DNA of 64,000 nt, taken from Amphiscolops sp. MND2022 (lineage: Eukaryota). Under the pieces are notes generated by a model. That model did not search any database and was not told the DNA's origin. It saw only the letters and a list, made by a program, of their open reading frames with translations. This document shows positions 10,628 through 52,910 of the stretch, one piece after another (the first letter of the stretch is position 1; each line of letters opens with the position of its first letter). The stretch spans positions 10,540,001-10,604,000 of the forward strand of contig OZ076417.1 of NCBI GenBank assembly GCA_964187785.1, read 5' to 3'. The position numbers were made by a program, and so were the translations under genes.

Positions 10628-10660
10628 CGTTACCAAAATAGCTCAAACAGTTAAAACAAA

Positions 10661-11688: not shown

Positions 11689-11952
11689 ATATGAAGAATT
11701 ATTGAGCTCATTTTGATTAACGCAGTTCTGGAATTAACGGAAGTTCTCCAAATGACTTTTCAATCGTTTCGTTTGTTCCTCACTGTGAGCGTCCTCACAG
11801 TTTCTGCCCCATTCAGTAAGCTTAACTTGATCTCAACTCACTTCACATATTCGCTCTATGGGTTGAAACATAGGCTATTTAGGAATAATTTTTTTGTTTT
11901 TTCTGTCCCACGGAACGAACCAGATAATTCGAAAAATCTCATGAAATCAGGC

Positions 11953-11976
11953 GATGTGGAAACGAACCCTGGACCT
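11953..11976 (+). other. 2A (StopGo) ribosome-skipping motif DVETNPGP
   Basis: Exact D(V/I)ExNPGP consensus in KNLMKSGDVETNPGP. In frame with the APE domain (PIV*KDLVSIFNENGKKLKFFHVNCQSL) through one nonsense codon. Confidence 0.9.
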
Positions 11977-11989
11977 CCAATTGTATAAA

Positions 11990-26966: not shown

Positions 26967-27315
26967 GTATAGGAAATTTCGATCGTCCGTGGAAAACGAC
27001 TGGAATTTTTCTCGTCACGGGGACGGGAGACGGCTCACTGCGGTTTTGTTATAGTTTTTTACTATTGCAATTACGCGCTGTATGATTTTGTCAGCAAAGT
27101 AATTAGCTGGCAAAAGCTTTTCATTAAGCAGTTTAATCGCGGAATTTTCGCTCATGCTTGACTTGCTTGAATTGATTGCACAATGAATCTTACTTGTTGC
27201 GCTTATCCTGCTTTCTGAGTGGCTCGCGTGTTTTGGTCTGATTTATGCGGTTTATGCTCATTCTTTCACTCTCGCTTTGTCCGCTCGCTTGTGTCTCGTC
27301 TTCTAAAACATCTCT

Positions 27316-28731: not shown

Positions 28732-30250
28732 TTTAATTTTTTTACTCGACCTTTTCTCTTGAACAAATCTGGAAATTCCCTCATTATTTGTTTAACTTCG
28801 GGACTGATACTTTCTTGGGGACTTATCTCATTTATCGCTTTGGCGTCATCCCCCGCTTTAGTGTTTACTTTACACTCACCTCTTTCTATTGGCTGACTGA
28901 TATTGTAGCGTAGAGCAATTAGCCAATCACGGCCAATTATGGACTTTCCGCTGTTTGGTGCTACTAGCAATCTTGCCTTCGAAACAGTAACACCAGCAAC
29001 TTCTACGCGTACCAATTGATAGCCCAATAGATCCAGGGGTTTCTTGTTGTAATCTACATACCGCTCGTTGTCTACCATATCCCTGATAACCACTTTTCTT
29101 TTGCCAATGATTTTTGTCAAATCTCGTTTTGTAAAAATAGATACCGGGGACCCAGTATCGATGATAGCTTTAAAATAATTTCCACACATGGTTCTGGTTC
29201 CTTCCATGTAGAAAGGCTTGCTTCCATTTCCATCGATTTGGAGAACTAATTGCTCTTCGTTACTGTCAGATTCCTCCTCCTCGCTTTCCTCATCAATGTA
29301 GATTACTCTTCGCATTCCTTGAAAGTTACTGCTTCTGGATTTTAGCCTCTGCAGGATTTCTTTTTGTCGTTGAGGAAACTTCCTATTGCAGCATTTTTCC
29401 AAATGCCCGACAATTTTGCAGAATTTACATCTGTAGTTTGTTGCTGTACAATTTTTTTTGTGTTCCGGGATAAAGTTGGATTCCCCACATCTGAAGCATT
29501 CCCTCGGGTTAGATGACTTTTCAATTGCATACACAGGCTCGGTTTTCACCGCAATTTTGGGGTTTTCTGTTGTCTGTAGGCCGTACAATTTTTGTCTTTT
29601 CACCCCCTCCTCGAATGCGATTGCAAATTCCAAGGCTTGATCTGGCTCGCGGGGTTCTGTACAAAGTTTCTCCTGTACTTTTTTATTGTTCATGTGTAGG
29701 ATGAACATATCTAGTACGAGGGTTTTCGTTATCTCCCCGAAATCACAAAGGGATGCTAGCCCATTTAGCGTGTGCCAAAATTGTTGAAGCGTCTCGCCGG
29801 GTTGCTGCATTCTCGAAAAAAATTTGTGCCGGTCGAGGGTTCGGTTTCTTTTTATCTGGAAACAGGCCGTGGCTAGTTGTATTAGTTCTCTCACCTTTAG
29901 ATTCCACAGGGTCGTGTGGGGATATTTATCTTTGAATAATTTCCTTGCCGCCTCTCCAAGTGACAAGTACAGTACGCTAACCACTTTTTTGTTGGCAGGG
30001 TCTTCGTCCATATCCCCCAATAAAGCTCGTGCCCTTGGATTCTGCTGATCAGCATCAAGGGTCAGCTCAGTGATTGAGATTGAGAATTTGGCCATGACGA
30101 CCACCTGGAAAAGATCCAGCCACTTGTCCCAGTCCATAGTAGGGGTTGAATTGGCCTCATGCCAATACACTGGAAGCCCAACGAGGTGCGACATTGCAGT
30201 TGTTGACCATGTTAAGGAGGAAGAATTGCTGCTTTCTGCTCGCAGCGCCA
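28722..30250 (-). CDS. gag: Gag (two CCHC knuckles) plus aspartic protease
   Basis: CFRCG...H...C, CKFCKIVGHLEKC and IDTGS. Confidence 0.9.
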
Positions 30251-33187
30251 TGTTAACGTGGAACTCGAATAAGAATATGAAAGAATGAGAGGATGAAGAA
30301 TGTATTATGTTGAAATGAATTGAAATGTTTTCTATCAACGTGTTTTCTCTCAAGGCTCATGTGGCAACTGATGCTAGCATAGAATTCTAGAGCTAGACTT
30401 TTGACAGGTTGTTAATACGTATTTACAAACACTTCAATGACCTCTACTACAGCTCCACGATCTCCATAAATAGTCACGTAACTATAAAAAAGTTAAGTAA
30501 TGACATGAAGTGGATGGATGAAGAACAGGGTTGAAGTGGATGGATGAATTAGTGGAGGGTGATCGGGATGGAGACCATCAGTCGGAAAATATCTCGGTGC
30601 ATAGCAGGCGCCTTGTTGCATATTGCACCAACTCCACGTAAGAAGTAAATGAAAATTCAAACAGTACATGAACAACTATAGAATTAAAACCTCATCTCAT
30701 TCGAACTTTGCAAGGGAGTCAACTTCTTTAAACTGAACTCCAATCTTCACCTATTACTCTTTCTTACTTTATTATACAACATTCTCGGATAATTTCTTTT
30801 CATACGTTGCTATCAAGGAAAAATTTTTTCTTGAAACTGGTCGCTTGATGCCTATTTTGTTTACCCATCCTATCACTCGTATAGTCGTCTAGACTCTGAC
30901 GAACTTTTGTTGCATATTAATGTAACTTAATTTGTATTCAAAACCTATTGTACTCCAAAATTGTAAAGCTTTATACTCCTCTATAGAGTCGTTCTTTAGT
31001 GAGATCTGATACTGTTAGCGTCTTCTCAAAGTAATAATTCATCGCCGCCGTTCATCTCTACTAGAGACAGATAGTATCTGGAATAACTTGACGTTCTAAA
31101 ATATTAAACAAGACGCCTGCTACGCACCGGGATAATTTCCGCTATAAATGTAAGACATCAGCACGGGTTCGAGCCCACGACCTGCGCAATGGTGGCTAGA
31201 GTTAACTAAATGGAGTAACAAAAAGGAGATTTGGCAGAATCTGTGAAAAAACGCAACACAGATTATGATTTTCCTCCCCCATTATATGTCTGCGGAAAAT
31301 GTATTAAACTTTCATTTCAAAATCAAATACTTTGCCATGCAATGACCAAGGATGCAACTGTCAGTCAGAGCATCAATGTATGATGTTTTTCAATCATGGC
31401 AGGTAGTTTGCCTATAGGAATCATTCTTTGGCCTGAATTTTAGAAAACCAAAAGAGTGGTTGTAGAACACATATTTGGTGAAAAACGTTCAGAGGAATGT
31501 GATCGCGAGTAGTTTTTCTCAACTGTTGATGACAAACCTTCTCTTTCAAACAAGCTGGTTTTGTTATATAGTTCTATGAATTTTCTCAGAATGCGTTTCA
31601 AAAAAAACTTTAGACGGAATTTTGTGAACGGGAGCGTTGGAAGAGGAAAAATATGAGCATTGCCAGCATCAGTAAAAGAAACCTCTGCGCACCTATGTTC
31701 CGTAAAAGTGTTGCGTATCATTTTCAAGTAAAGTATCAAGTAAGAAATGAGCCGAAATCCTTTGAAAACGTACTTCACAAGTTTCATTCATGCACGTACT
31801 TCAGCACTTCTTTGACAGTTCCCTCAGCAATGACTCAACGAATGTTCGTGACCACGAGTACTTGACAACCCTCGGAATAGTTGATTACATTAGATGCTAT
31901 TTTTCAGATCTTTCAAAATCCAGTGCTGGTTTTAAAGAAACAGTTACAATTTCTTCAAATTCTAAGTTTTCAACCCATCTAGCAGAATTGTGTGCAAACA
32001 CAATAAACAAAACAAACAACGTTTCGGAAGAAAAACAAGCAAAAGACAGTGTTTTTTCCATTGGAGTTTTTCTAAACTGGTTCAATTTCTTGAATGTTGA
32101 AATAGCTTGAAAATCGTGCGAGAAACTCGCGAAGAGTTCGGATTCTGAGTTTCTTGTTTTTGACACTTTGAATTGTCGACAGAGATTGAACTCCATAATG
32201 TTATTGGAGAAACAAATTTCTCTTGGTCTCGTGGTCTCAATCCTGTCACAAAGTTATAATTGCACTCTCTCTACACAGGATTTCCACAGATTTCATTTTC
32301 GATAGTCTCAAGAGGTCTCGGAATTCGTTTCTCAGTGCACCATTAGGCTTTTATATGTGAGATGTGTTCAGTATCCCAAGCATCTCATTCCTTTGTCCAA
32401 CAACGTTCTCGGCAACATTCACAGCATCAGATCGGGATTTTGTGTAAAGTATTGTATTGGTGTTGCTTCATTTTCTTTTGGTTCCGAAGGATCTAGTACT
32501 CTCTTTAAGTACTGTTGCTTGTGTCCCGCCTGTTCCTTGTGGATATGGTAAACTTCCAAGGTTTTTTTGTTCTTTCTTGACGAAATCACCTTTTAGAATA
32601 TTTTCCAGTCTCTTCCGATAACTTAGCTGATTTGGGGCTTATTCTTAGATATTTGGGTGACGATCGGAGTTTCTGTGACTTTTAGCACCAAAACTTCTGT
32701 CAAAAAACAATACAACAACTGGAAAAAACTTTCTTGATAGAAAAACTCAGTAGAACATTCTAGAAAAAGTGTATGAAAGAAGAATAATTGCAAAAGTTTA
32801 GCTCTGTTTTATTCAGTATGTCAAGTTATAACACGCCCGTACTGAGACTCCATTCAATCCCATCGATGGGCCCATCGCAGCCTTTTTTGATGAGCATCGA
32901 TGGGCCCATTGCAACTTTTTCCGATGGGCAACGATAGATCATCGATGGCCATCGATGGGATTTGAATTATCGCCCAGCGCATGGGGGCACTTGTGGAGCA
33001 TTTTAGGGTTAAATATATCTAATTTTAACCTACTCTCATTTCCTTTTGAGCCTGAGTAAGCTCGCTAAGTAATCAAGCTTTCCTTGCTGAGAAAACCATC
33101 TGCTTGTAAGAAGAAAAATGTGAAATTTGACTCTAAAAATACGTATTTATATCGAAAAATTTAGTGTTTTTTCCTTGGAAAATCAAC

Positions 33188-33584: not shown

Positions 33585-34034
33585 TGGTGGCCATAGAGAG
33601 GCCCGAGTTGAAATTCCTAATCCCAGTTCACTTTCATCTTGATCATTCCTGTGAGATTTATTTTGACTCATTTATGCATTCAACCGCAAGACGTGTTACA
33701 GGCAAAAGTGTTGCAGTAACACGAAATCCAGAAAGACAGGAGAACTTCTGACGGACGTGTCCCAGTCAAACGCGTAAACGTGTGGTAGTCGGACGAATTC
33801 CAATCAGACGTGTCACAGTCCGACATTGAAATTCTTTAGAGAAACTAAAGATTGTATTGTCAATCAAAATTAAAATAACAACGAAAGTTGAGGAAAATTA
33901 TTATTATTAACCGCCAAGTCAAAATTTGACCACACAAACTTTAAAATGACTCATTTTATGATATGAATAGCAAGGCCTTTTCGAGAGTATTTTTACCTTA
34001 ATCAGAGAAATATTTCTAAATTATAAAATATTTT

Positions 34035-34102
34035 ACATGTCCGGGAATCGAACCCACGCCGGTCAAATACCGGCCTTGTATTCTACCGCTAAGCCAACCT
34101 GT
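34035..34102 (-). ncRNA. tRNA-like Pol III module inside the LTR (identical copy at 42910-42977)
   Basis: A box TGGCTTAGCGG, B box GGTTCGATTCC, internal GCCGGT/ACCGGC stem, partial acceptor pairing ACAGGT/ACATGT. Not a canonical tRNA. Confidence 0.7.
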
Positions 34103-34298
34103 CCTAATATTTGTTTGTTTTAAATTAACGACATTGCTGCCGCAACATCCTCCGGGCCCAAGAAGATGAATGTTTTATAGTGCAAAAAAATTTTTTTTTA
34201 ATGTTTTCTAAAACATGTTTTTACATGAAAATTAATTTTTTTCATACAGGTTGATACGTGAAGCATAAATGAAGGAAGTGGAAGAAACAGAACATTGT

Positions 34299-37200
34299 TT
34301 ATTCGGGAAGGGGAAGGACGGGAGCGAGTTTGATCACTGGGCGTACAAGGTTACCAGATGCTGTTCTGACTTCAGCGGACCTGGCGACGGCGTCTGTACC
34401 GAAGTTGAGCTTTACGACACGAGCTAGTGGATAATGCCCTCTAGATGAGGTCGGTTCAACAATCCACACGAGATCTCCGGTCTTAAGATCTCTGTTTGAG
34501 TGCGATGACCACTTCGAACGGCGATTCAGAGTGGGAACGTATTCTCTTAACCACCTGTACCATATTGTATCGGAATAAGCTTGCGCTCGAGCGTAACGCT
34601 TGCGATGGTCGATGTCTGCTTGCTGATGCGAAGGCAGTACTGAACTTGAAGTTCCATGTAGAAAATGATTTGGAGTTAAGGCGTCCAAATCGGTTGCACC
34701 TGCACTAGCAGGTACTAACGGTCGTGCATTCAAACTTTGTTCCACGAGGCAGAACGTAGTTGCAAGGATTTCGTCTGTCAGACGTCTATTTCCGATGACA
34801 GCGTAGAACACGTGCTTGAAACTAAACTACGTACTGAACGTTCCCATACACCTCCATGGTGCGGAGCACTGGGTGGTTTAAATTTCAACTGGATTCCTTT
34901 CTTGACAAGTGATTCAGTGAGGACTTGTTGATTCCAGTTTCTGACGTTCTGTAACAGTTCTTTGTCACTTGCAACAAAGTTAGTGCCGTTGTCGGACCAG
35001 AGAACTGACGGAGTGCCTCGTCGGGCAGCAAATCGTTCAATTCCCATCACACAACTACTAGTGTCCATTGACGGCACAACTTCAAAATGGACGGCTCGAG
35101 TAGTCAGGCAAGTGAAAAGGAATCCCCAGCGTTTCTCAGTAGAACGTTTCACGGACACGTAGAAGGGACCAAAGTAGTCGATTCCTGTGTTGCAGAATGG
35201 AGGTTCTCTGTATGCAAGTCTTTCCCGGGGAAGATCGGACATCATGGGAGCTAAAGTCTCAGCCTTGCGTTTACGACAGGTGATGCACCTGGATACAATT
35301 GATCTCAAGGTTGGTCTCAATTTGACGATTGCGTATTGTTGCTGGATCAAAGCCCTCAAGTATTCAACACCCTGGTGGCATTGACTGATATGAAAGTTCT
35401 CCAGGAACAACCGAACTAAGGGATGACGGCTATCTAGTAGAATTGGGTGTTTCATGTCGAATGAAGCAACATCCAGCTGTTTTGTGCGACCAGAAGCCAG
35501 CAGTAAACCATTAGGTCCAATGAAAGGGGAAAATTCAACAATTTTAGAAGACTTGCTGAGGGGGAGTGACTTCAACAAGCATTTCTTTTCAGTGTTAAAG
35601 GACTCGAGTTGTACCAAATGGAACAATCTCTGTTAGGCATTGTCGAGTTCAGTTGGATCTGTAATCAATCCATTGTCGGTGCGCTTGGATTCGTTCTTTG
35701 GGAGGAGTCTCAACATAAAAACCACAATGCGCAGAACCTTCTCGTACGAACTGTACTTCTGCCATTTGAAAGTTGTTGTAATTTCGGTTACTGTTGCGGT
35801 GATTGTAGTACACTGATGTTCTTTGGTTTCGTTAACTTTAGTGGAATGAGCGCCTTTGTTAAGCTTTATTTTCTGACGAAATTCTTCTGGGGGTTTGAAC
35901 GGGAAGTCGGATGTTTTTAGAAAGTCCGGTCCTGTCAGCCAACAACTGTTCAAAAGATCAGTTGCAGACATTCCACGTGTGCCCGCATTAGCCGGATTGT
36001 GAGCTGTAGGGACATAGTGCCACTCATCTACAGTTGTTAAGTCTAGAATCTCGCATACTCGGTTCGCCACAAATGTGGGTTGCTTTTGCAAAGAAGTTAA
36101 CCACTGAAGCACAGTTGAACTATCGCTCCACATGAAAGTTCTGTCTATCTTCAAAGACAGTGCACTGAGGACCTCGGCGCAAAGTCGTGCTGCCAGTAAT
36201 GCGGCTTGTAGCTCCAACTTTGGAACAGTTAGTGCCTTCATAGGAGCCACTCTTGCTTTTCCAAAGACGAAAGCTAGCTGCGTCACAACACCGTGGTCGT
36301 TTATTAGTTTTCCTCGCAAGAAAGCGACTGCGCTGAAAGCATCTTGTGAGCTATCACCAAACACGTGTAGCTCAATCGTCTCAACAGTTTGACAGAAGTA
36401 CCTTCTTGGTATGGTAATTTCATTCAAAGTTGACAACTCTCTGCTCCATTCCAAGAATTTTGTTACAATTTCGTCTGGCAAGTTATCGTCCCACTGCTGG
36501 CCACTGAGCCTCCAAATGTCTTTCAAAAGCAGGCGCGCTTTGATAGTGAACGGCGCGACGAGACCAATTGGGTCGTATACAGCGGATACCAAACTCAGAA
36601 CAACCCTTTGAGTGACATTTCGGTCGGTGTTTGGACTGGTTCCTCTGCTAACAACTAGGGTGTCTGTTGAGTGATTCCATTTCATTCCAAGAACGTGCGA
36701 GAATTTCTCCGCAGTCGGAATCTCTTTCTCTTCCGTGATTCTGGTGTCGCTGTTCGGATCTACTTCAATGGGGATGCTTGGTACATTAGACACGAACTTT
36801 GTCAGTTTAAACTCTCCCAAAGCAAGCATTTTAACAAGATCCTTCGCTTTGTTTGAGGCTTCGATAGCTGTTGGACTTGATTCGAGGTAATCGTCCATAT
36901 AAAAGTTGTTGTGGACGCTTCGTGCTGCATCTGGAAAGTTGGCTTGGTTATCTGTGGCAGTTCGTTTCAATGCGTAGTTAGCGCAAGTTGGCGAATCTTT
37001 GGAGCCGAAAATATGCCGAACAAACTCGAAAACAGCAACTTCAGCTGCTGGGTGCTCCCGCCACAAAAATCGAAGTGATGGTCTGTCACGTGGGATAACT
37101 CCAACTTGGAGAAACATTCCTTCGATGTCTGCAGATACAGCAAAAGGATACTGACGGAAACGGAAAAGAATGTGGATTAGGCTCTGTAGCAAATCTGGTC

Positions 37201-40200
37201 CTGCTAGAAGAGCACTATTCAAGGACTGACCATGAAATTTTGCGGCTCCATTAAGAACCCTACGGACTTTGCCAGGCTTGTGAGGATGCACGACCGGATG
37301 GTGCGGTAAATACCATTCCCGGGGCTGGTCTACTTTAAAACAATCGGTTTTGTCCACTTGAACAATATAGCCTTTCGAGAAATCGTCGCTAATTGTTTTC
37401 GTATAACTGGCTTTCAAATCAGCATCTTTTTGAAGACGGCGCTCTAGCGATTTCAGTTGAATAAGTGCAGAAAAATAATTGTTCGGTAAACAACTTTCGT
37501 CGTCGGCCCACAACTTACCCACTTGGTATCGGGACCCATCGTGGTATGTTGTTTCATCAAGTATCTTTGTCGCTCTCGCGTCGGTTGCAGAACGGGAATC
37601 CACTTGTTTGTACGCGCCGTACGACTCAATGTCGTACCAGCTTCGGAATCGGTCAGAGAGTGTACAATCGTGCTCTTTCTGAGTAACAGCTTTGAAGCAT
37701 GTCGAAAATAGACCCGTGGTCGACGGAAGGGGTCCACTCAGTACCCAGCCCAACTGGGATATTTCGGCGGTCGGATTCGAAATACTCCAGTGGGCGGATA
37801 GCGTGGAAAACGTCCTGACCAAGAATCATTTTCACATCTGTGTAGCTGTACTTCCTAAGAGCGATTGGTTCTAAGTGTGGATAGCGAGTCTTCAAATCAT
37901 CTGCGTCAATCACATCATTTCCAATAGTCAATTGATCTCGCACATAAGGTTTGACAGTAAAGGAAGAGCAAGAGCCACCCGAATGAACCGGTGTCAACTT
38001 GAGCTCGACCATTTGAGTGTCAACAACCTTATTGGAGTTGATTCCGTGTACAATCAGTTTGGTCGGCGTGTCGCGCACGTCAAGTTTGTCAGCTAGCTCG
38101 GAGGAAATCCAAGAATGGCTACACGCTGAGTCGCACAAAACTAAGACTTTTGCAGATTTCTCAGAAGTTTGCACTTCCACTTCCGTTATTTGTAATAATC
38201 CTTTCACATCAGAGATGGAAGGGAGGCATGAGGTGACTTCGTCTTTCTTTTGGATCGCTGTCGTTACGCAACAAGTAGTTGCTTCACTATTGCCCGCTTT
38301 CCCAGATTCAGATTTTCTCGGGAAAATCTTCTCTGCACCATGTAGCAAAGTATTGTGCGTACTTCCACAGCCATTTTTGGTGCATTTGCGTGGCTGGGGG
38401 CAATTGCGGAAAGAGTGTTGTCCATTAAAGCATGAGAAACAAAGTTTGTTCTCGGCAACAACTTTCGCTCGTTCTGTTGGAGTCTTCTTTCTGAACACTT
38501 GACATCGCCACAACGGATGCTTATCTTTGCAAACTACACAATTAACTTGGAATTTCTGGGTTGACGGCTTGGTTGCGAAGGTATTTTTAGTGGAAGTTGT
38601 TGTTGCAGCGAACACTTTAGAATTGGTCTTGGTTTTCGTTACGTTTCCGGTTGGAGTTTCTTCAACTTTAGGTTTTCCAGTGGCAGATTTCATCCTCTCA
38701 TGAGCTTCAGCTTTGTCTTTCAGCCAATCATTGAAGTCAATCAGAGTCGGTCGGCTCAAATCTCGCTTCACCGTATGCATTGACCACCCTTCTTTCAAGT
38801 TCGGGGGAAGCTTTTGAACCGCTTGACCGAGCAATGAAGCACTCGAAAGATCTTGAACGTAGTTCAGAGATCGGAAAATACCAACCAAGGAGCAAATTGT
38901 AGCTGCATAACTTATGATGCTTTCGCTGTTATGCATTTTCACTGGAGGAATATTCGCTAATTTGTCCAAGTAGGCACTGACCACAGTCTGTGGTTGGCCA
39001 AACTTTTGTTCAAGAGTCTTCAGTGCGTCCTTGTACATTGTCCCACAGTACGCAAACTCAGCAATTGCTGTTTTGGCTTTTCCAGTAACAAGTGTCTTCA
39101 AGTAAGTGAGTTTCACGTCGTCTGTAAGTGAAGAAGAATCAATGGCACTCTTGAACTGGCCGAACCATTCATGCCATTGAAGAGGGTCGCCATTAAACTG
39201 TGCCAGTTTCCACTCAGGAAGATGGTCTTTCTTCGTCGAACTCAAAAGCTGTGCAAGGTCTTGCAATGTGGAACTATTTACAGACGGTTGTGGCAAAGTA
39301 AACGAACTGGCAGGTACAAAAGGAGGAGCAGTAACACTGGGAAACGTTTTTCAGTTTGAGGTACACTACAGTTTGTTGTCGATGTTACCACGGCAGTCGG
39401 CTGCACGTAGTAAACAGTTCCTCCATTCGTTATTGGGAAAACTTGTGCTGTAGATAAGACACTATTGTTGGATGGAATGACTGTGGGTAAGCTGGTAGCG
39501 GGGGGTGGTACTACAGAGGTGGTGACTGCTGATTGTTGGAAGGATTTGGAATCCGGAAAACTCCAGGCAGACAAGTTAGGTAAAATGTGATTTACTGGAA
39601 GTGTGACTATCGGATTAGGTCGAGGCTGAGCTATTGTCGGTGCTGAAGTGATACTTACTGAAGGACAAGGATGTTGCAAAGTGCTAGCATTGTTCAAAAA
39701 CAAACCAGTAGCAGCGGAGTTAGTAGCAGTTAAATTAGTTTGACCGGGGAAACGCGGAAGCTGGCCAGGTAAACTAGCAAACGTGTTGTTAGGGTGGTTC
39801 AAAGACTCAGTTGTTGTAAGCGACAGTGGAGCCGTACCTGTGGTGTGTTCCGTTTGTAGCGGAACATTATTTTGCACCGTAACGAATGTAGGCGCTGATA
39901 CACTAGTGTTTTCATTTGATGGAGATGCAGCTAAGGGCAATGGTTGCGTACCAACGGTCTGTTCCTGATTCGATTCATCAATGGGTGCTTCAGGGGCACG
40001 TTGATTGGTAGCAGATATCAAAGTGGGAGAATTATTAACCCAGTTGTTAACTCGGATTGACTGATGTTCGTGGCTCTCCTCACTCAACAGTGATAGCGTC
40101 TCCTGGAATTCTTCATTTGTCGCCGACAGATCATCTTGAAGTTCTAATTCAATCAGTGTTGCCTCAGCCAGTTTTTTTGCGATTCTCTTACTGCACCTCG

Positions 40201-40766
40201 GCGACTCTAAGGGCAAGTTCTTCCTTGAGACGCTCTTGTTCTTGCTGCATTCGTTTGATTTCAAGATCTTGCTTTTGCTGAGTCAGTCGGAGTGCAGCTT
40301 CATTTTGCTTCTCAATTTCTTCACGCCTTTGTTTTGCAAGGAGTAGCTCTTTCTGCCGTTGGCTTGACGTCTTTGATCGAAGAAAGCTTGAAACTTTACT
40401 GGACTTTGTCTTGTTTGTAGATGGAACTATTGAAGTTTGCGAAGCGTTGTCGGTTTGCAGACATTTCTCCAGATAATTGCGAGCTTTCGTCAGTATTTCA
40501 TCGTTTCTGACAGCAACGTCGTTTAACCACTTTTCCAAGTCTGGCTTCACTGACTCTGGGTTGGTTGATTTGTTGGCTAAGTCTAGGAGTTGTTCATTTT
40601 TTGCAAAGGCTTTAGTCATAGCTTCCTCGCACGAGGTGACTAATCGATCAACGCGAACACGTCGTTCGGTATTTCCAATGGCGTCATTGAGCTTTTGCTG
40701 GATCTTGTTGAGCTCCGCTTCGGCTTTAGCGCGGCTATCATGCAACTTGGCGACTCTCTCTTGCAT
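34299..40766 (-). pseudogene. Bel/Pao gag-pol (gag, PR, RT, RNase H, IN), about 5 frameshifts
   Basis: LPEWKLAQFNGDPLQW, three Cys/His knuckles, LCDSACS, DIEGMFLQV, YMDDYL, FGDSSQDA, PKLELQAA, DYFGP, SDNGTNF and GVWER. Confidence 0.95.
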
Positions 40767-41177
40767 CCTATCAGCAATTGAATGTTTTCTTTTCCCTTTT
40801 TTTTAAATCAATATAGTGTGTTATTAGGACAGGGATTGTATCGTTCTCAGCGCTAAATTATGTTCGAAACAGTAGAATCAATTTCAGAACATCAACCAGA
40901 CAACTAAGTCTGGACACAGTTCTGAAAATCAACTATGCTGTTATCAATTATTGAAAATTCGACAGTAACAAAAAAAATTGTTTTGGAGGATGTTGCGGTT
41001 GGAAGACGGTTAATTTGTTTGTTTTGGTTTAAAATTAGGCACTAAGGAACTACGAGGGCTGTACAAGACGGGAGTAGCGCATAACACGCAACGACGGTAG
41101 TAAAAAAGTTGTTTTGAACGTCAACCGGACAGTCAAGTCCAGACACAGTCCAAAACTTTGGAAAAAATTGTGCGACT

Positions 41178-41837
41178 TCAACCTGACAATGAAGACTGGA
41201 CACTGTCACAACAACAAGGCGTTTCGGAGGAAGAAATTTCACTCTGATTTGAAGCAGCGTTCTTCAAAGCTTTACGTGCACGTTTACTTGGTCGCTTAGG
41301 GCGACTTTTAGCTGTAATCTGGGCTAGATCGGTTTCTTTTCGGAGAATGATGTCTAAATATTTAAGTTCAAACTCGGGTCTCTGCTGTATTGCCTTCAAT
41401 TCATTCAAAATTTGCGGGTCGTTTTGTTTTCTTGTCGAAAAGAAATCGGTTTCAATTCTGAAAACAGGAACGTTTTGCGTTTTTAGAACATCAGAAATGT
41501 CGGGCGTTCGAATTCGGTGGCAATACACAAGAGCCCGGAGTTTGTTTTCTAGAGATTTCAAGATTTCTAACAACTCAGAAACAGACAGTGCTCGAAAATT
41601 GTTGCTTTTATGCTTTGACAAGCTATTATTCAGCACATCATGCCAGATAACAATCTCAGTTTTTTCAGCGAATTCTTTCTGTAACAAATTTTGAACGACT
41701 TTTTGTGGGTTTTTCGCGTGATTATTCAAACTAAGGCCCGGTATCGTGTTAATTTTTTCGTTGAAGGCTTCTCTTTTTTCAGGGGTTAATATATCAAGAG
41801 CGTGATGCAACGAGCTGGCACCCAAAATGAACACCAT
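41178..41837 (-). CDS. Accessory ORF (219 aa) upstream of gag, SGNH-hydrolase-like fold with basic C-terminus
   Basis: Uninterrupted ATG-to-stop ORF with FILGASS, IPGLS and IVIWHDVLNN resembling SGNH blocks I-III, and an NLS-like KSRPKRPSKRARK. A homologue lies at 43577-44191. Confidence 0.7.
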   Translation of the reverse strand: MVFILGASSLHHALDILTPEKREAFNEKINTIPGLSLNNHAKNPQKVVQNLLQKEFAEKTEIVIWHDVLNNSLSKHKSNNFRALSVSELLEILKSLENKLRALVYCHRIRTPDISDVLKTQNVPVFRIETDFFSTRKQNDPQILNELKAIQQRPEFELKYLDIILRKETDLAQITAKSRPKRPSKRARKALKNAASNQSEISSSETPCCCDSVQSSLSG

Positions 41838-42147
41838 TACATTTTACAATATAATAATTTCTTTTTTACACAGCGCAAAAGGCAAAAAATTTCGCTCAGA
41901 AGGAAGTTTTTCAGGCTCGAATCAACTTCTAATAATGATAAGAATGTTAGGTTATTTTAACGAATTTTCACAAAGGCCTTGCTTTGCTATGAATGAAGCG
42001 CCAAATCAATGATAGTTATGGAGGTTTTGGAGTAATTGAGCAAAAAGTTAATCGGTGATTGAAATGAAAGAAGAGTTTACTGTTTGGCTCGGTTTCTGAT
42101 CTGGGTGATTTCGTCAGTGCCTTTTGTTTCGTCTCGAGTGTCCTCAG

Positions 42148-42231
42148 CTCGTCTGAGAAGTCATCGCAGTCTTTGACCCCATCGCAGCACGAAGTGAGGG
42201 CGATACATTGGTGAGAGTGGGAGCACCAGAA
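42148..42231 (-). pseudogene. LDL-receptor class A (LDLa) motif inside the Bel/Pao leader
   Basis: FWCSHSHQCIALTSCCDGVKDCDDFSDE matches FxC...CI...CDG..DC.D.SDE. The first Cys (CTA) lies in the adjacent frame and the last Cys is absent. Confidence 0.7.
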
Positions 42232-43576
42232 TTGCTGTACACTTTTTAAATAATCTGCCTTCAAAGGAAGTTGTAGCCAGTGTCATTGGTTGACTGAGCC
42301 GGCTCAACTGGCACATGTTATGAACGTCCAAAGATCAACTTTCTAGAACCCAATAAATAGGCTGGCATGCATGCTGGTTTCCAAGTGTAAAGCTTGGCTC
42401 AGGCGGGTACTTTAATTTCTGGTAGTACTTGATAAATAAATTGGATATAAATCGAATTAGCGTAGAAATACCATCAAGTAGAAACTTGGCTAAAAGTGTT
42501 TGCAACTCGTAATTGAAGCGAAATTCAGGAGATGCGTGCTTAAACACCTCAATTGCTGCTTTGAAAATTGCAAATCAAGTGAGCCAGATTGTTGGCTCGA
42601 CGGTTTCGGGAACGTAATTTTCAGTTGTAATTGACCGGCTTTGATCTTTCGTATGTTTTGAAAGTTCATTCAAGAGCAAAAAGCCTCTCAATGGCCACCA
42701 TGAAATTCTTTAGAGAAACTAAAGATTGTATTGGCAATCAAAATTAAAATAACAATGAAAGTTGAGGAAAATTATTATTATTAACCGCCAAGTCAAAATT
42801 TGATCACACAAACTTCAAAAATGACTCATTTTATGATATGAATAGCAAGGCCTTTTTGAGAGTATTTTTACCTAAATCAGAGAAATATTTCTAAATTATA
42901 AAATATTTTACATGTCCGGGAATCGAACCCACGCCGGTCAAATACCGGCCTTGTATTCTACCGCTAAGCCAACCTGTCTTAATATTTGTTTGTTTTAAAT
43001 TAACGATATTGCTGCCGCAACAGACATCTTCCAACACACTGCCGGGTTGTTATACAGGGCTTTTGACCAACCAGAGCAAATCGAAATTGCAATCAGATGT
43101 TGAATTGAGAGTTGGAACCGCGTCATGCAAAGGGCAACCGAGCAGACGTTTTCACCCAAATTGGAAATGCAGCCTCGTCCACAGGTATTTTGAATTGATC
43201 ATAGAGGGTCTACCGCAAAGTGTTTCGTGCAACTTCTATGGATTCAAACCCATGATTCAACGGACAATAGCACCTCTAACCGAATCCAGAGACGTTCCCG
43301 AGAAAACCCCCAAGTCTGGTAACGTTATTCGAGAACATCAATTTTAGAGTGAATAGTGATTAAAACTACAACTTGAGCTACTTTCAAAGCAAGGCCTTTG
43401 GAGCATATAATTTATGCAACTTTATACCCCAAATTTTCGCCAAAATGTCCTTCGGAAAAAGAAAAAAACCTTGAATGTAATACGACAAAAAATCGTACCT
43501 TGTCACGTTAAAAACAAAAACGTTTCTCGCTCAGCAAAAAAACTTTTTTCGTGGTTATTCTAATTGACAAAAACTC

Positions 43577-44191
43577 ATGGTATTTCTTATTGCAGCAAGT
43601 TCCGTTGATCATGCCCTTGACACACTAACCCCCGAAAACCGAAAAAAACTATACCGAAAAAATTTTCTCAATCTCGGGTCTATGCCTTAACCCTAACACG
43701 AAAAATCCCGAAAAATTGTGGAAAACGTGCTCTCTAAAGATCTTGCCGAAAAAACTGACATCATTATTTGGCATGATGTGCTGAATAATAGCATTTCTAA
43801 GCACGAGAGCAATAATTACCGGGCATTAAGCGTTTCCCAAATGTTCGAATTTTTGACATCAATTGAAAAACTCCGGGCTCTAGTGTACTGCCACCGATTC
43901 CGTACAACGAATATTTATCAAAATTTGAAAAAAATAGGAAATTCCACGAATATTAAAGTGTTTAACATTGTTTAAGACTTTATTTTGCCGAGAAAAAAGA
44001 AAGATCCTGAGTATCTCAAGAAACTCAAGGCATTACACCAGAGCCCCGAGATTGAAATCAAACACATTGACTTCATTCTGCGCAACGAGAGCAAGCTTGA
44101 CGCTATCACCGACAAAAGTCGCCCCAAGCGGCCCAGTATGCGCGCCCGAAAGGCAATCAAGAGCGCTGCAGCCGTCGCTGCTTCGTCCTAG
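43577..44191 (+). pseudogene. Second copy of the SGNH-like accessory ORF, upstream of gag
   Basis: MVFLIAASS...IIIWHDVLNNSISKH...KLRALVYCHR...KSRPKRPSMRARK. Two compensating indels in A-runs and one in-frame TAA. Confidence 0.8.
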
Positions 44192-44738
44192 ACCCCCCAA
44201 CTGTCTTCACTGTACTGTAGTTACGGTGTCCGGACATCATTGTCCAGTTGAATTTCCTGCAGTAGTTTACCCGTCTTCTTGAGTTAATTTTCCGGTTGAT
44301 ACTCAGAAGTCTACTCCCCGTCTTTCTTCCTGCCGTTTAGACAGTGTCCAGACTTCATTGTCTGGTTGAAGTTCTTTCGGCCTTCTTCCGCCCCTTGAGC
44401 ACTTAATATTGGACGAACCATCATCCTTTCGGGAAGAGCGTGTTTTTAAATCATCTTCCTGTGTACTTAAACTTCTTCCTGTGTCTGGTAATCTTCGTCC
44501 TGTGCCACTTTTAAAAACAAAAAAATCGTTAAAAAATTTCTTTACAATTACTATTAACGTGAGATACAGTTTCCATCAACTCCACGCTGTTACCGTCAAA
44601 CCGAAATCTTTCTCTGTTCAGCTGTGTCTAAGCTTAATTGCTTGGTTGACGCTGTCGAAGAAAGTATTCGTCGTTCTATTTGTGTTAACACTTTCCTCAC
44701 TACCTTGATTCACTTTCTAACGAAAGATCACAACGAAA

Positions 44739-47700
44739 ATGACCGACACCAGGCAAGACAAAGTCAGAAAACTTTTCGAAATCCGTGCCAAAGCCGAAAG
44801 CGAGTTACAGAGATTGCAAGAAAAAGTTCAAGATGCCGTGGAAAACAAAGATAGACGTGTCCGCGTCGGAAGACTTGTGACTTCCTGCGACGAAGCAATG
44901 ACGAAATTGTTTGCCAAACATGAACAACTTTTCGAACTGGCTGGCAAATCAGAAGACTCGTCACGTGTTAAACCAGATTAGAGCATCTCAATCGTCAACG
45001 ACTGTCACCAAGAGCAAGCAACCAAGCAAAACGTCTGCTTCTAGGACATCCAGACAATCGAGAACATCCAGTCAGCGTCAAAGAGACTTGCTAATTGCTT
45101 AGCAACGTAAGGAAGAGATAGAAAGGCAAAACGAAGCCGCATTTAGATTGGTAAAGCAACAGCAGGAACTTGAACTTGAACGGCTACAGAAAGAACAAGA
45201 ACTACTCAGACTGAGGACCGACCGACTTAAGAAGGAGCAAGACTTTCGAGTAGAACAGTTAGAGGAGGAAAATCGAATGAAACTCGCTGAAGCAACACTC
45301 ACTGAGCTTGAACTGACTGAGTACTTGTCAGACTCCCAATCGGAGTTTCTAGACACCGCGTCACAGTTAGCTGCGTGACACTATTAGCTGCTTCGACTAA
45401 AGCGGACGATACGGTCCAAGTCAGCGAGTGGGTTAACAATTCACCCGTAGCTACTGCAAGTGATCCCACGAACGCTGGAATTTTGAACCCGATTGCCGCT
45501 ACCGGCACTACTGCAGCACAAAATTCAGTCAACAGAGGAGTTCCCACAACTAACCCTCCACCTACTATTCCAGTAGAGACTCCGGTAGCCCCTCCAGCCG
45601 TACCAACGACCAACAACATACCACTAACTACGGGACAAGGTTCGATAATTTACCTACCGTCTACTGGCCCGGTTCAAGCTCCCCACTCGACCACAACGTC
45701 TCACGAAATAAATGCTGCATCGATAACTGTTACAACATCAGCCCCTCTGGCGTCGGCCACGTCGTATCCACTTTCACAACCACCGTTCCCGCAAACCATC
45801 TTTCAAACTTGTCAGCATGGACGTTCCCGGCAGGACCAATTACCGTGACTGCGAGCGCAACTCCTGTAACTACGAACCACACCGTATTTCCGACCGTTTT
45901 TCCGGTTACTAGTAAGGCCCCTACCGCATCACTTGTTATTCCCGTCACCGCGGGAGGAACCGTTTACTATATTAGCCCGACGTCTCTGACAACTGTGCCC
46001 ACACCGAGCAGCGCACCAGTACCGACTACTTTTCCGGCCGTTCCTTCAACAGCAACACCATTTGCAACACCTCCGCTCATCACTACACCGCAACCAGTAA
46101 CAAACAGTTTCATTGTCCATGATCGTGCGAAATTGTTAGCGTCCTCGAAGAGGGATCACCTCCCTGAATGGAAACAGGCCCAGTACAGTGGAGATCCACT
46201 TCAATGGCACGAGTGGTTTGGCCAGTTCAAAAGTGCCACCGATTCAGCACCCCTTACCGGTGACGTGAAACTGACCTACCTGAAAACACTGGTGTCCAGT
46301 AAGGCAAAAACTGCTATCCCCGAGTTCGCTTATTGCGGAACAACGTACAAAGATGCGCTCAAAACGTTGGAAAGACAGATTGGGCAACCTCAAACTGTGG
46401 TTAGTGCCTACTTGGACAAACTTGCAACTATCCGCCAGTTAAGATGCACAATAGCGACAGTATCATCAGCTACTCTGCCACTATTTCCTCACTCGTTGGT
46501 GTTTTCCGATCCTTGAACTACCTGCAGGATCTGTCGAGTGCTTCTCTCCTAGGCCAAGTGGTTCAAAAACTTCCACCAAATTTTAAGGAAGCGTGGTCGA
46601 TGAACACCGTCAAACGGAATCTGGATCGACTGACTTTGATTCACTTTAACGACTGGCTAAAGGAGAAGGCAGAGGCACACGAAAGAATGAAAGCCGCCTC
46701 CAGTAAACCAAGATACCAAGGTTAAAAGTGAGAAACAATGTGTAGCTTGCAAGGACAGTCACCCGCTTTGGCGTTGTAAAGTGTTCCGCCAAAAAACTCC
46801 GATAGAGAGAACCAAGCTAGCCGCTGAGAGTAAACTCTGCTTTTCTTGTCTCAACGAAGGACATTCATTCCGGCAATGCCCGCAACTAAGAAAATGCACT
46901 AAAGACGGCTGTAGCAGCTCTCATAACTTTCTACTGTACGGGTCTGACAGAAAATTTTCCACAGAAAAGTCCCGGTGACGCGAAAATTTCTCAAAGTCTT
47001 ACAACAACAAAGGTCAGCCAAACAGGCAGCGAAAGTTCCGGCATGCCTTCCGTAACCGACCTCAAAAGCTTGTTGCAAATAACAGAAGTCGAATTGACAT
47101 CGCCGTCGAGCTCTGCTAAAATTCTTGCTCTATGTGACTGAGCTTGTAGTCGTTCATGGATCACGAGAAGATTAGCCGACAAGCTACAAGTTAAAGGCTC
47201 AACAACCAAGTTAACCGTACATGGGATAAACTCCCAACAACTGATTGACACGGAAACGGTTGAGCTTAAGTTGACACCCGTTCATTCGGGTGGCTCTTGT
47301 TCATCTTTTCCTGTCACTCTTTACGTCCGAGACGATTTGAAAGTTGGAAACGACATTATCGAGGTTGACAAACTTAAAACGACTTACCCGCATCTGGAAC
47401 CGACCCTCAACAAGTACAGCTATTCAGACGTTGAGATGATCCTTGGTCAGGATGTCTTCCACTGTATCCGCTCATTGGAGTACTTCGAAGCCGACCGTCC
47501 CAATACTCCAATAGCCGTCCGTTCACCGTTGGGTTGGGTACTGAGTGGTCCGCTTCTTTCCACCACTGGCCTTTTCTCGACTTGTTTCGAAGCTGTCGCT
47601 AGCTCAGAGAACGATTCTATTCTTGCCGAACAGCTTCGCAGCTGGTACGACATTGAGTCATAAGGTGCCCACAAACAAGTTGACTCTCGCTCCGCAGCCG

Positions 47701-50700
47701 ATGCGCGAGCTATGAAAATCCTCGAAGAGACGACATTCAACGATGGCTGCCGGTACCAAGTTTGAATGTTGTGGGCCGATGGAGAAAGTACGTTGCCGAA
47801 CAACTACTTCTCAGCTCTTGTACAGCTTAAGTCGTTAGAACGCCGCTCTGGAAAAGATCCTCAACTGAAAGAGAATTACAGCAAGACAATCAGAGAGGAC
47901 TTCGGAAGAGGGTACATCGTTCGAGTCGATAAGTCCCAATGTTTCCGTACCGATTACCGTCGTGAGTGGTACTTGCCACATCACCCCGTAGTACACCCGC
48001 ACAAACCAGGCAAAGTGAGAAGAGTTCTCAATGGTGCTGCAAAGTTCCATGGACACTCTTTGAACAACGCCCTTCTAACCGGTCCGGACCTACTGCGAAG
48101 TTTGATCCATATGCTCTCCAGATTCCGTCAATTCCCCAAGGCCGTGTCCGCCGACATTAAAGGCATGATCTTACAAGTGGGAGTCATACGGAAAGACCAA
48201 CCGTCCATTCGTTTTTTTTGTGGCGGGAGGATCCATCAACTGAAGTTGCTGTTTTTCAGTACGTAAGACACATCTTTGGGTCGAAGGACTCTCCGACTTG
48301 CGCAAATTACGCTCTGAAGAGGACCGCAACTGACAATGCCGACAAACTTCCGAAAGCCACTCAAAGCGTGCAGACGAATTTCTACATGGACGACTACCTC
48401 GAGTCTAGTCCCACTGCCAACGAAGCTACTCAGAAAGCTAAAAACTTAATGAAATTCCTTTCGCTGGGTGGATTCAACTCAACGAAGTTCGTGGTTAACT
48501 ACCCTAACATCCTGCAACAAATCAAACCGAATTCTGAGTCCCAACCCAACGTTGGTAAACAGTTACCGACAACTGAGGAATCATCGCACGTACTTGGCCT
48601 CAAATAGAGCCACGTCTCGGATACACTTATTGTTAGCCGAGGCACCACTCCTGACACAAACCGAACTGCTACTCAACGAGTTGTTCTCAGCCTCGTCTCC
48701 GCCGTGTACGACCCTATTGGGCTCGTAGCCCCGTACACCGTGGAAGCCCGACTTCTGCTGAAAGAAATATGGAGACTGAGCGGCAAGAAATGGGATGACC
48801 TTCTTCCAGAGGGAATTGTAACCAAGTTTCTGGACTGGAGTTCTGAATTGGGAACTCTTAGTGAACTCGTGATTCCAAGAAGTTACTTCCAACAAAATGT
48901 CGAGTGTTTGGAGTTACATATGTTTGGTGACAGTTCGCAAGATACTTTTAGAGGGAAAGTCAAAACTGGAAATGGTTGTTCCACCGAAATAGCCTTTGTG
49001 TTTGGCAAACCACGAGTTGCGCCAATGAAAGCGTTGACCATTCCTAAACTCGAACTGCAGGCCGCGTTACTCGCTGCAAGATTGAGAACCGTAGTGCAAC
49101 GCGCGGTCAATTTGCTGATTGATAGAACGTATATGTGGACTGACAGTACTACGGTTCTTCAGTGGCTACATTCTCTGGAGAAACAGCCGGTGTTCGTTGC
49201 AAATCGTGTCGTAGAGATACTCGAGCTTACGACTGCAGATGAGTAGTACCATGTTCAATCCGCCGACAACCCTGCTGATGCTGGAACTAGAGGTTTATCA
49301 GCCAAAGCTCTTCTGCAAAGTAGTTGGTTAATTGGCCCCGAATTCCTGAAAACAGATGAATGGCCCTTCAAGCCTTCCAAAGACATCCGACAAAAACTGA
49401 AGCAAATAAAACCGGATCTGACTGATGAACTAGTTGCGGAATCGTCGTCAATGCTGAGCGAAAACCATGTTGCAATTGCAAAAGTTTTCGGGTGGCAGAA
49501 GTATTGCTCATACGAGAAACTCCTGCGCATTGCAGCATATGGTTTGCGGCTCTTACCAAAGAACAGCGAATACAGAACCATCGCAGGTGCCATTACGGAT
49601 CCGGCCGAACTTGAAAATGCTGAACAACGTCTTTTCTACCTGACTCAGGCAGAATCATTCCAAGTTGAAAAAAGTAATTTGCTGAAGTCAACCCCACTCA
49701 GTAAAACTTCCGAACTTGCCCAATTTTCTCTTTTTAGGACCCAACGGGCTCTTCAGAGCCTCTGGTCGAACAAGAGACCTCGACGTTGCAACCTTCGATG
49801 TGAAACACCCCATTCTGTTGGACGCCCGACATCCCTTGGTTCGACTCTTGCTGGAACACACGCACGTTCAACATTGTCATCAAGGTGTTGATTACCTCCC
49901 TCTTTGATACAGCAACGTCTTGCGGTGGTAAAACTGCGAGCAACTTTGATAACAATAATTTCGAGGTGCGTTACATGCCGCAAGCGAAGGGCTGAAGCTA
50001 TTCCTCCAGTGAGCGCGGGCCTCCCGCGAGAAAGACTCGCTTTCAAAGAATCACCTTTCTCGAAGACTGGTATAGACTACTTCGGTCCCTTCTTTGTAAC
50101 CGTGAGGTGGTACACTGGAAAACGTTGGGGCTTCCTTTTCACATGTCTCATGACTCGCGCTGTTCACTTTGAAGTAGTTCCTAGCATGGACACCAGTAGC
50201 GGTGTGATAGGAATAGAAAGAGTTTGCGCCCGTCGTGGAATCCCATCAGTAATGTGGTCCGACAATGTGACAAATTTCGTTGCTAGCGAAAAAGAACTTT
50301 TGTCAAACATCAACAATTGGAACCAACACACTGCCAGAGATTCACTCGTTAAGAAAGGCATTAAGTGGAAGTTCAACCCACCAAGTGCCCCCTGTCAAGG
50401 ATGTGTTTGGGAACGTATAGTCCGTAGCTTCAAACACGTTTTCTACGCTGTTTTAGGAAACCGCCGTTTGACAGACGAAATCTTGACGACAACGTTCTGC
50501 TTGGTGGAACAATGTCTCAATGCTCGTCCAATCACTCCCGTTAGTTCTGAAGCTACCGATCTCGACCGTCTTACACCAAACCACTTTCTCCTGGGAACTG
50601 CAAGTTCAATATTACCATCGCACTTCTGCCCTGTTCGAGCCCAAGCTTATTCAGCGCAATTTGGAATCGTTGGCTCAAGGAGTACGTTCCGAACCTCAAA

Positions 50701-50925
50701 CGTTGCTCGAAATAATTGAAGTCGTCAGATCGAAACCCGAAAATTGGAGATTTCGTCTGGTTAGTCGAACCTACTGCACCAAGAGGACACTACCCACTTG
50801 GTCGCTTAGTGAAACTAAATTACGACACAGATGCCATCGCCCGTTCAGCTGAAGTGAAGACCTCGACCGGAAACTTTGTTCACCCAGTTGTCAAGCTCGC
50901 TCCCGTTCTCCCCATCCCCGAATAA
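44739..50925 (+). pseudogene. Bel/Pao gag-pol of the outer element, heavily fragmented
   Basis: Same motif series as the inner element (LPEWK, VLNGAAKF, YMDDYL, PKLELQAA, DYFGP, KLAPVLPIPE). Confidence 0.93.
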
Positions 50926-52910
50926 ACAATAAACTATCGTATTTTGCTTTTTGATTCTTTTCACCATACTTCATTATATTTCATGTAACTTGCATGAAAA
51001 TTAAAGCTGAGAAAAAAGTTTTTTTTAATTGATTGAATCGTTTCTCCACATCTTCTTGGGTCTGGAGAATGTTGACAAGCAATAAGATTCAACTCAAAGA
51101 TAAATCAATTTCTCGATGACCGCAAAAATTAGAGAATATTCAAGAAAATATTCGAAAATTCGAATACAAAAAGGCCTTGCTACGAAGTATTGTTTGCAAC
51201 TATTTACCACGGTATAAAAGGGATTAAGTGGAAGTTCAACCCACCAAGTGTCCCCTGTCACGGAGGTGTATTGGAACGCCTAGTTCATAGCTTCAAGTAC
51301 GTTTTCTATACCATTTTAGGAAACCGCCGTTTGACAGACGAAATCTTGACGACAACGTTCTGCTTGGTGGAACAATGTCTCAATGCTCGCCCAATCACTC
51401 CCGTTAGTTCTGAAGCTACCGACCCCAACGCCCTTACACCAAATCACTTTCTACTGGGAACCGCTAGTTCAACCTTGCCATCACACCTCCGCCCCGAAAT
51501 AGACCATCGAAAGCGATACGTTCGAGCCCAAGCTTATTCCGCGCAATTTGGAATCGTTGGCTCAAGGAGTACGTTCCGAACCTCAACCGTTGCTCGAAAT
51601 GGTTAAAGTCGTCAGATCGAAACTCGAAAACTGGAGATTTCGTCTGGTTAGTCGAACCTACTGCACCAAGAGGACACTACCCACTTGGTCGCTTAGTGAA
51701 ACTAAATTACGACACAGATGCCATCGCCCGTTCAGCTGAAGTGAAGACCTCGACCGGAAACTTTGTTCACCCAGTTGTGAAGCTCACTCCCGTACTCTCC
51801 ATCCCCGAATAAACAATAAACTATCGTATTTTGCTTTTTGATTCTTTTCACCATACTTTATTATATTTCATGTAACTTGCATGAAAATTAAAGCTGAGAA
51901 AAAAGTTTTTTTAATTGATTGAATCGTTTCTCCACATCTTCTTGGGTCTGGAGAATGTTGACAAGCAATAAGATTCAACTCAAAGATAAATCAATTTCTC
52001 GATGACCGCAAAAATTAGAAAATATTCAAGAAAATATTCGAAAATTCGAATACAAAAAGGCCTTGCTACGAAGTATTGTTTGCAACTATTTACCACGGTA
52101 TAAAAGGGATTAAGTGGGCCCATATGGGCTCAAAGAAACTGAAAAACCTAAATGGCGAGAGTTTTGTTGAACTTTTGAAAATGGCCAAGTCGAACGCATT
52201 TTTGTGATCGAAAATTTCGATTCTCATCGATGAACCATTGATGGCCATCTATGGGCCCCATGGGACTGCGATGGTCATCGATGAACTGCGATGAGCTCCA
52301 AAAATAGCAATTCGATTGGGTGCTTTGGAAAGAAGGAAAAAACTCACTGTCACGATTTTTATCAACAAGCCATAGTTTCCCCTAAAGAACGACAAAGTGT
52401 ATTAAAGTGTTCTAATTTGAAACTGTCAATATCTGTGAATTGGTGTCCTAACGAAAAGAAAACAACTCCTAGGAAACACATAATAGCGAGAAAAAACAGA
52501 ACAATTTGCGATTTGCGAATAGTATAACTGAAATGTTTTCGAATAGTTGGAAACTTTCTTCAAAACAAACATGTCTTCAGGACCACTGTCCCTAGAAACT
52601 CAGCACTCTTTACCAACATCATAAGTTGCTTTGGGCATTTTTGAGCACCTTCCACTGTAAGGATCAAATCGCGAAATTTTTTCCGAGAGTCTTTTCTTGT
52701 CGGAGGTTGACCTTCCATGGTCTAAAAAGTATTTAAAAATTTTTGGCTAAGATTTTACTACGGTGAGCATCTTGCCAAGAAAAGATACTATCAAGACTAT
52801 TTCTTAAAAAAAGTCAAAATGACAAGGAAAAGTTCGCCTTGAGGTGTATGCTGGCAAGTAAAAACCGTCTTCATAAAAATCAATAGATAATTTAATCGAA
52901 TAGTATTTTT

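Follow-up and report, generated by a model that had tools for sequence, protein, structure and literature searches.

The window analysed here, the whole 64,000-nucleotide stretch, carries two Bel/Pao retrotransposons in which gag is preceded by an additional open reading frame (ORF), broken in the second. This raises the question of what this ORF encodes, whether it is a working gene of the element or a passenger within it, and by what route it came to lie there. The first element is complete, occupies 33827-43022 on the minus strand and has the following features, in the order of its own transcription:

42701-43022, minus strand: 5′ LTR with TG...CA ends, the target-site duplication GACAT alongside
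42683-42700, minus strand: PBS-like 18-mer (TGG...), abutting the 5′ LTR
42228-42681, minus strand: captured host sequence, two pieces of one C1 locus (95% and 94% identity)
42145-42237, minus strand: fragment of an LDL-receptor class A domain, likely captured (PF00057, E 5.6e-6, above cut-off)
41178-41837, minus strand: intact SGNH-fold accessory ORF with Ser8, Gly34, His66-Asp67, Asn71, Gln151 and a basic C-terminal tail
41178-41203, minus strand: spacer hairpin repeat 1, overlapping the end of the ORF
41121-41146, minus strand: spacer hairpin repeat 2
40892-40917, minus strand: spacer hairpin repeat 3
34299-40802, minus strand: gag-pol, broken, in several frames
33827-34147, minus strand: 3′ LTR

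The two LTRs agree at 313 of 321 nt (97.5%) and the 5-bp duplication GACAT is present on both sides. Along with the PBS, these are features expected of a Bel/Pao element, as is the gag-PR-RT-RH-IN order with DUF1759 and Peptidase_A17; the DUF1759 gag, Peptidase_A17, RT and rve domains all lie downstream of the accessory ORF in broken frames. The ORF itself is on the same strand as gag-pol, running from an ATG at 41837 to a stop at 41178 (219 aa, zero internal stops), and starts 863 nt past the PBS-like sequence. The preliminary description of an intact minus-strand ORF between PBS and gag is therefore confirmed as to its start, stop, PBS, LTRs and gag. In the usual Bel/Pao layout, which is present in other lineages of the same genome, gag is the first ORF past the PBS; here, however, a leader and the SGNH ORF intervene, giving the order LTR - PBS - variable leader - SGNH ORF - hairpin spacer - gag-pol. 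The start of the PBS motif (TGG...) is common to 44 of 50 close copies of the element, and a genome search with one probe gave no cognate tRNA gene. Both LTRs also contain a tRNA-like stretch with A-box and B-box (42907-42975, 34032-34100), missing from the LTRs of several close relatives and not called by ARAGORN or Rfam. Elsewhere in the window there is a Gypsy-type LTR element (25214-30451) with LTRs 99% identical and no match to the SGNH family.

The second element is in a poorer state of preservation:

43577-44191, plus strand: broken SGNH homologue with three in-frame stops
44226-44251, 44344-44369 and 44624-44649, plus strand: spacer hairpin repeats
44739-52117, plus strand: broken gag-pol and 3′ end, the latter with a tandem duplication of ~0.9 kb

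Its homologue is 55% identical to the ORF of the first element, and the conserved blocks quoted in the preliminary description are present in both, varying between the copies. It has neither a 5′ LTR nor a PBS; self-BLAST returned the duplicated 3′ end alone, and relatives align only from ~43540, plus a 44-nt scrap of leader. The statement that both elements have the ORF between PBS and gag thus holds for the first element and not for the second.

The genome of the animal itself gave 3455 candidate matches to the ORF, of which 150 were scored, and these are not chance matches. All 30 of the closest copies run on into a Bel/Pao gag, with an LTR within the flank in 29 and a stop-free ORF in 22, while 20 hand-picked copies at ~60% identity are each directly before a Bel/Pao gag-pol. 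The linkage to gag, which had been put forward as a check, is accordingly seen in 50 of 50 close copies. Values of dN/dS (Nei-Gojobori, 190 codons) could be estimated for 71 of 105 pairs and range from 0.06 to 0.33; the remaining pairs are saturated. In eight pairs the SGNH ORF (0.07-0.13) could be set beside the gag N-terminus (0.12-0.23) and RT (0.06-0.15); it resembles both and is higher than capsid. The accessory ORF is under purifying selection, in agreement with what its conserved blocks had been taken to suggest. As regards distribution, 818 clusters match at E ≤ 0.001, at least one of which (P0165, best 48% here) is from another organism; a metagenome scan yielded two short contigs lacking element context, and no relatives of the protein were found in viral contigs or phages.

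These results bear directly on whether the ORF could be neutral cargo of the element, or what is left of a LINE that had inserted into the leader. The idea has some appeal, as the family belongs to LINEs (see below) and the leader tolerates foreign sequence. However, it is highly improbable given the dN/dS range, the conserved position of the start codon while the DNA upstream turns over, the largely congruent SGNH and RT trees within the Bel/Pao clade and the absence of a LINE ORF1 or ORF2 after the ORF in the Bel/Pao copies, and it is largely refuted by selection and co-divergence.

AlphaFold2 modelling of the window protein gave a pLDDT of 79, and of a His-bearing relative (106 sequences) a pLDDT of 93.2. 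Structure searches with the former reached Z 9.7 to SGNH/GDSL proteins and with the latter a best Z of 11.8 (rmsd 3.1-3.6 over 143-159 residues), nearly all of the 50 rows listed for the relative being of SGNH/GDSL type; Foldseek gave an E-value of 3.4e-4 with the same model. The Atlas also pointed to GDSL clusters (score 0.90), serving as a lead only. The models and searches agree with the SGNH domain proposed earlier, and the predicted fold of the accessory protein is the SGNH alpha/beta/alpha fold. No SGNH match was obtained from Pfam for the protein or 72 relatives, and sequence searches of the PDB with the protein found nothing meaningful. With respect to kinship with known LINE esterases, it should be mentioned that 4c1b is not among the fold matches listed, which does not exclude it.

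With regard to the active site, the catalytic residues are kept in most of the 106 aligned proteins, namely Ser8 (101), Gly34 (99), Asn71 (99) and His151 (101), where assignment to the SGNH blocks (Ser I, Gly II, Asn III, His V) follows from order and secondary structure. Also conserved are His66 (102/106) and Asp67 (99/106), which form a WHD motif. Block I reads G/A-A-S-S in place of GDS, and the Asp of the block-V DxxH is missing, position 148 being variable and mostly K/R/S. The Gln151 of the window protein is a private change, with His in 29 of the 30 closest copies. The protein had been described as possibly degenerate in catalysis, partly from its LHQ in place of DxxH; this is not borne out at the level of the family, which has the His and where the block-V Asp alone is missing. 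A Ser-His dyad working with another acid would be plausible. The protein is basic (K+R 33-44 versus D+E 12-25 in the family), and an Arg/Lys C-terminal tail is kept across the family.

The spacer between the ORF and gag has a feature of its own. A 26-nt hairpin motif occurs in two to four copies around and after the SGNH stop codon in 50 of 50 clade copies, always in the sense orientation, and in 0 of 42 other loci. For its 6-bp stem, 94.3% of cells are paired, versus 85.7% when shuffled, and double-sided stem changes number 31 versus 8.3 with G-U favoured, though these pairing statistics lean favourable as the motif was gathered by a stem-including pattern and the rows are related. Rfam gave no match for the hairpin, which may act in packaging or in internal initiation of gag.

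The combination of basic tail and hairpins makes it conceivable that the protein is an RNA-binding SGNH derivative similar to the OSK domain of Oskar, its tail resting on the spacer hairpins and controlling gag translation or RNA packaging. The excess of K+R, the retention of the tail across the family, the presence of OSK among the fold matches (Z 8.4) and the position of the hairpins 3′ of the ORF in every clade copy are all in keeping with this. The OSK domain is not known to be catalytically active, whereas the catalytic Ser and His are kept here, and the hairpin motif is found in 0 of 40 more distant loci with the same ORF. In addition, the ZfL2-1 esterase, a LINE-encoded SGNH protein, is reported not to bind oligo-A RNA (PMC3905857). 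Such a role is considered unlikely.

The esterase domain of ZfL2-1 ORF1p, from the CR1/L2/RTEX group of LINEs, binds phospholipids and liposomes and is a slow esterase (Schneider, 2013, PMC3905857). It shares with the present protein the SGNH fold, a 5′ position and a basic character, and is the best-studied functional model. By this analogy, membrane or lipid targeting with slow hydrolysis would be the favoured function: the basic protein would bind acidic membranes, and Ser-His, perhaps with Asp67 or a backbone carbonyl, could support slow acyl hydrolysis as proposed for ZfL2-1. There are differences between the two. In ZfL2-1 the esterase forms part of an ORF1p that also has a coiled coil, whereas here it is a separate ORF before ORF1 or gag, and one with no sequence-level match to the PDB or Pfam SGNH models.

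The ORF is not confined to Bel/Pao elements. Among 40 distant copies (~35-45% identity), hand-picked from the scored matches, 14 belong to other Bel/Pao lineages and 26 lie outside Bel/Pao; 16 of the latter are followed by a LINE RT. The suggestion that the gene is dedicated to this lineage is thus not supported. Intact LINE examples have three ORFs, these being SGNH, ORF1 and an endonuclease-RT ORF2; their ORF1 has either a PHD and a CCHC knuckle or is of a coiled-coil type, giving at least two LINE types. The preliminary description had also drawn a link to a LINE within the window, a broken copy (10611-14219) with an esterase-like domain in ORF1. This domain appears unrelated to the accessory-ORF family, to which no sequence similarity was detected, and shows a faint match (E about 0.04) to the second SGNH-like family described below.

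Of the 26 non-Bel/Pao loci, 23 have a spliced-leader exon ahead of the SGNH ORF, as against 0 of the 14 Bel/Pao loci. The 31-nt motif at the LINE 5′ ends is identical to a published acoel spliced leader (PMC9911081). Searching the genome for this exon followed by a GT donor gave 1247 matches; the first 100 listed are arranged in tandem, with an Sm-like site further 3′. Because the LINE motif equals an acoel spliced leader and such an exon/GT-donor array exists, the host is probably an acoel that carries out trans-splicing. The array of spliced-leader RNA genes is located at G000:C1:16.23-16.43 Mb (L093-L104) with a unit of 904 nt. Three-ORF LINEs among loci L051-L090 (e.g., L055, L064, L085, L089, L090) open with the exon, which in several is followed by its partial reverse complement and then a TTTCAG acceptor, and in others is joined directly to a downstream exon or doubled. 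Trans-splicing of the Bel/Pao RNA was also considered and is not supported, the pattern of leader exon plus ORF start having two sites and acceptors showing no enrichment; splice-acceptor-like motifs are rare before the ORF (7/50 sense versus 34 antisense).

In an SGNH tree of 58 rows (19 of the 50 close copies were retained and five loci were excluded for having more than one stop), Bel/Pao groups and LINE groups interleave. A test set up after a first tree had been viewed rejects the grouping of the Bel/Pao copies in one clade (p-AU 0.007 and 0.004). The deep branches are poorly supported, long branches come together and, with no root, the tree gives no direction between LINE and Bel/Pao.

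Twenty Bel/Pao loci were also hand-picked from Peptidase_A17 matches, blind to SGNH. In one of them the first family follows the PBS, in five a second family occupies this place, in one (L110) a fragment lies before the PBS, and SGNH is absent from 13; L110, though labelled family 1 in the RT tree, is not counted among the elements with the ORF in the slot. The SGNH ORF is dispensable for Bel/Pao elements in general, since 13 of 20 lack it, and in several of these the PBS is only 31-84 nt from gag. The second SGNH-like family possesses SDS, G-N and DxxH motifs (Atlas 0.94 to GDSL clusters), has no detectable similarity to the first and is found at the same position, after the PBS, in other Bel/Pao lineages. 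Two of its settings are unusual. In L125 (G000:C12:46843600 on) each LTR of ~1.67 kb carries an intact 195-aa SGNH-like ORF (799-1383, 9112-9696), a distant member of the second family, and there is an additional 301-aa ORF ahead of gag; some ten match pairs at 8.3-kb spacing suggest that L125-type elements form a family. In one copy, L122 (3895-9753), a second-family ORF and gag-pol are in one frame of 1953 aa.

Retention of the protein by two unrelated element classes, with at least two LINE types, and the filling of one position by two different SGNH-like families could also indicate an active de-acylase acting on a protein, glycan or signalling lipid of the host, with an anti-silencing or anti-defence role useful to any retroelement of this host. 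The nearest folds are indeed O-acetyl esterases and transferases, but a shared fold proves no function, and for the ZfL2-1 esterase no histone deacetylase activity is reported (PMC3905857). This role is considered distinctly unlikely.

The leader, from PBS to ORF, is 580-1070 nt long and differs between otherwise close copies. A PBS could be recognised in 44 of 50 copies, and these have 32 different leaders when matches of ≥250 nt are used for the count. Some leaders are common to 2-7 dispersed copies and were therefore amplified after capture. Of five leaders mapped, four correspond to host loci, three of them multi-exon and spliced (3-5 exon-sized pieces). The L017 leader comprises three exons on C12 and is a glycosyltransferase-2 fragment (Pfam match on its twin L008); that of L010 is in five pieces on C5, its peptide reading as glutamate-receptor-like; that of L015 has four exons on C8; and no parent locus was found in the host genome for that of L033. 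In the host, the joints of L010 and L017 are flanked by the GT and AG of introns, the last L010 piece excepted, and both fragments are in mRNA sense. At base resolution, examined for three leaders, host sequence begins 1-3 nt past the 18-nt PBS.

For the window leader, the host part starts 1-2 nt past the PBS; its two pieces lie 525 nt apart in the host and overlap by 6 nt at the joint, a microhomology with no clear GT-AG intron. The parent gene of the LDL-receptor class A fragment was not located. A Pfam match was found in two of 45 leader peptides, and Rfam had none for the leader. The leaders of closely related copies also vary in L060 and in L083/L086/L087, which represent two further Bel/Pao lineages with an SGNH ORF. 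A palindrome, AAGGCCTT, is present at ~41974-41984 and 43389-43400 of the window; 39 of 50 copies have it no more than 450 nt ahead of the SGNH start, and it also occurs in the LTR. It is a candidate dimerisation or switch-back site. Neither the host-mRNA fragments nor the spacer hairpins featured in the preliminary description; the accessory ORF is real, selected and in a setting richer than first described.

Taken with these leaders, the reading judged probable is that of a stand-alone selected SGNH gene, a membrane- or lipid-targeting esterase accessory of the particle or RNP, that came from co-packaged LINE RNA via the PBS slot. The elements of this family likely pick up cargo at this one fixed slot. 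Towards the end of minus-strand synthesis the RT would change template to a co-packaged RNA, and plus-strand transfer would close the joint at the PBS end, steps that we infer from established LTR replication. Leader swaps would survive because the leader is dispensable. Since LINE RNA begins with the leader and the SGNH ORF, its capture would give PBS-SGNH-gag, and the gene may have come in by the same slot more than once. Counted against the proposed reading are the 3-14 upstream ATGs per leader and the rarity of acceptor-like motifs before the ORF, both of which bear on its translation, as well as the missing DxxH Asp, the lack of an SGNH ORF in 13 of 20 Bel/Pao loci, the poor support for deep branches of the tree, the one leader in five with no parent locus and the microhomology at the joint of the window leader. 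It is possible, at a clearly lower probability, that the slot routinely swaps host mRNA fragments that are themselves selected, for example as camouflage versus small-RNA silencing, and serves as a gateway for SGNH cassettes between LINE and LTR elements, the esterase then being a matrix-like membrane anchor without env.

Both parts of the arrangement have precedents. Bdelloid Vesta LTR elements have a GDSL/SGNH ORF3, which also occurs in Athena PLEs (Rodriguez, 2017, PMC5408684). Like the present ORF, it is a stand-alone SGNH ORF of putative function in an LTR element, common to another retroelement class of the same genome. However, ORF3 is beside gag and pol, belongs to a rotifer-specific clade and has canonical catalytic residues, while here the element is Bel/Pao and the ORF is between PBS and gag, with a WHD motif and no DxxH Asp; that account describes no clear departure from neutrality within families, in contrast to the strong purifying selection seen here. 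A Ngaro-like element with an SGNH hydrolase ORF after the tyrosine recombinase (PMC9210276) and a Helitron-borne SGNH gene (PMC4021074) are likewise mobile elements with an extra SGNH gene, but of other classes; a review of Terminons (PMC6431247) is also among the prior art.

LTR-mediated retroposition, as set out in Tan (2016, PMC5131818) for Drosophila and known for maize Bs1, likewise involves spliced host mRNA fragments, sometimes of several genes, that are later amplified. An intron-less host fragment inside an element, its mark, is present here, with joints checked for two leaders. In Drosophila the retrocopy took the place of part of the internal ORFs, whereas here the SGNH ORF and gag start stay in place and 32 leaders in 44 elements share one fixed site 1-3 nt after the PBS. 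A BEL/Pao survey (PMC3118150) and a polychaete LTR survey have no occurrence of esterase or hydrolase, nor the DARTS paper of esterase or SGNH. SGNH in retroelements and LTR capture of mRNA are thus both known, and for SGNH in Bel/Pao or a PBS-adjacent capture slot no report was found in the open full-text literature, though paper supplements could list such.

With this ORF, Bel/Pao joins the retroelement classes that recruit SGNH esterases, doing so with at least two protein families and at a position 5′ of gag. As one family is present in both LINEs and LTR elements of the same genome, the role of esterases in retroelements becomes testable on a small stand-alone protein. At the single site next to the PBS, natural captures of mRNA are present by the dozen and can be dated; they give direct access to transduction by reverse transcriptase, and the slot offers a repeat-rich genome a way of shuffling exons.
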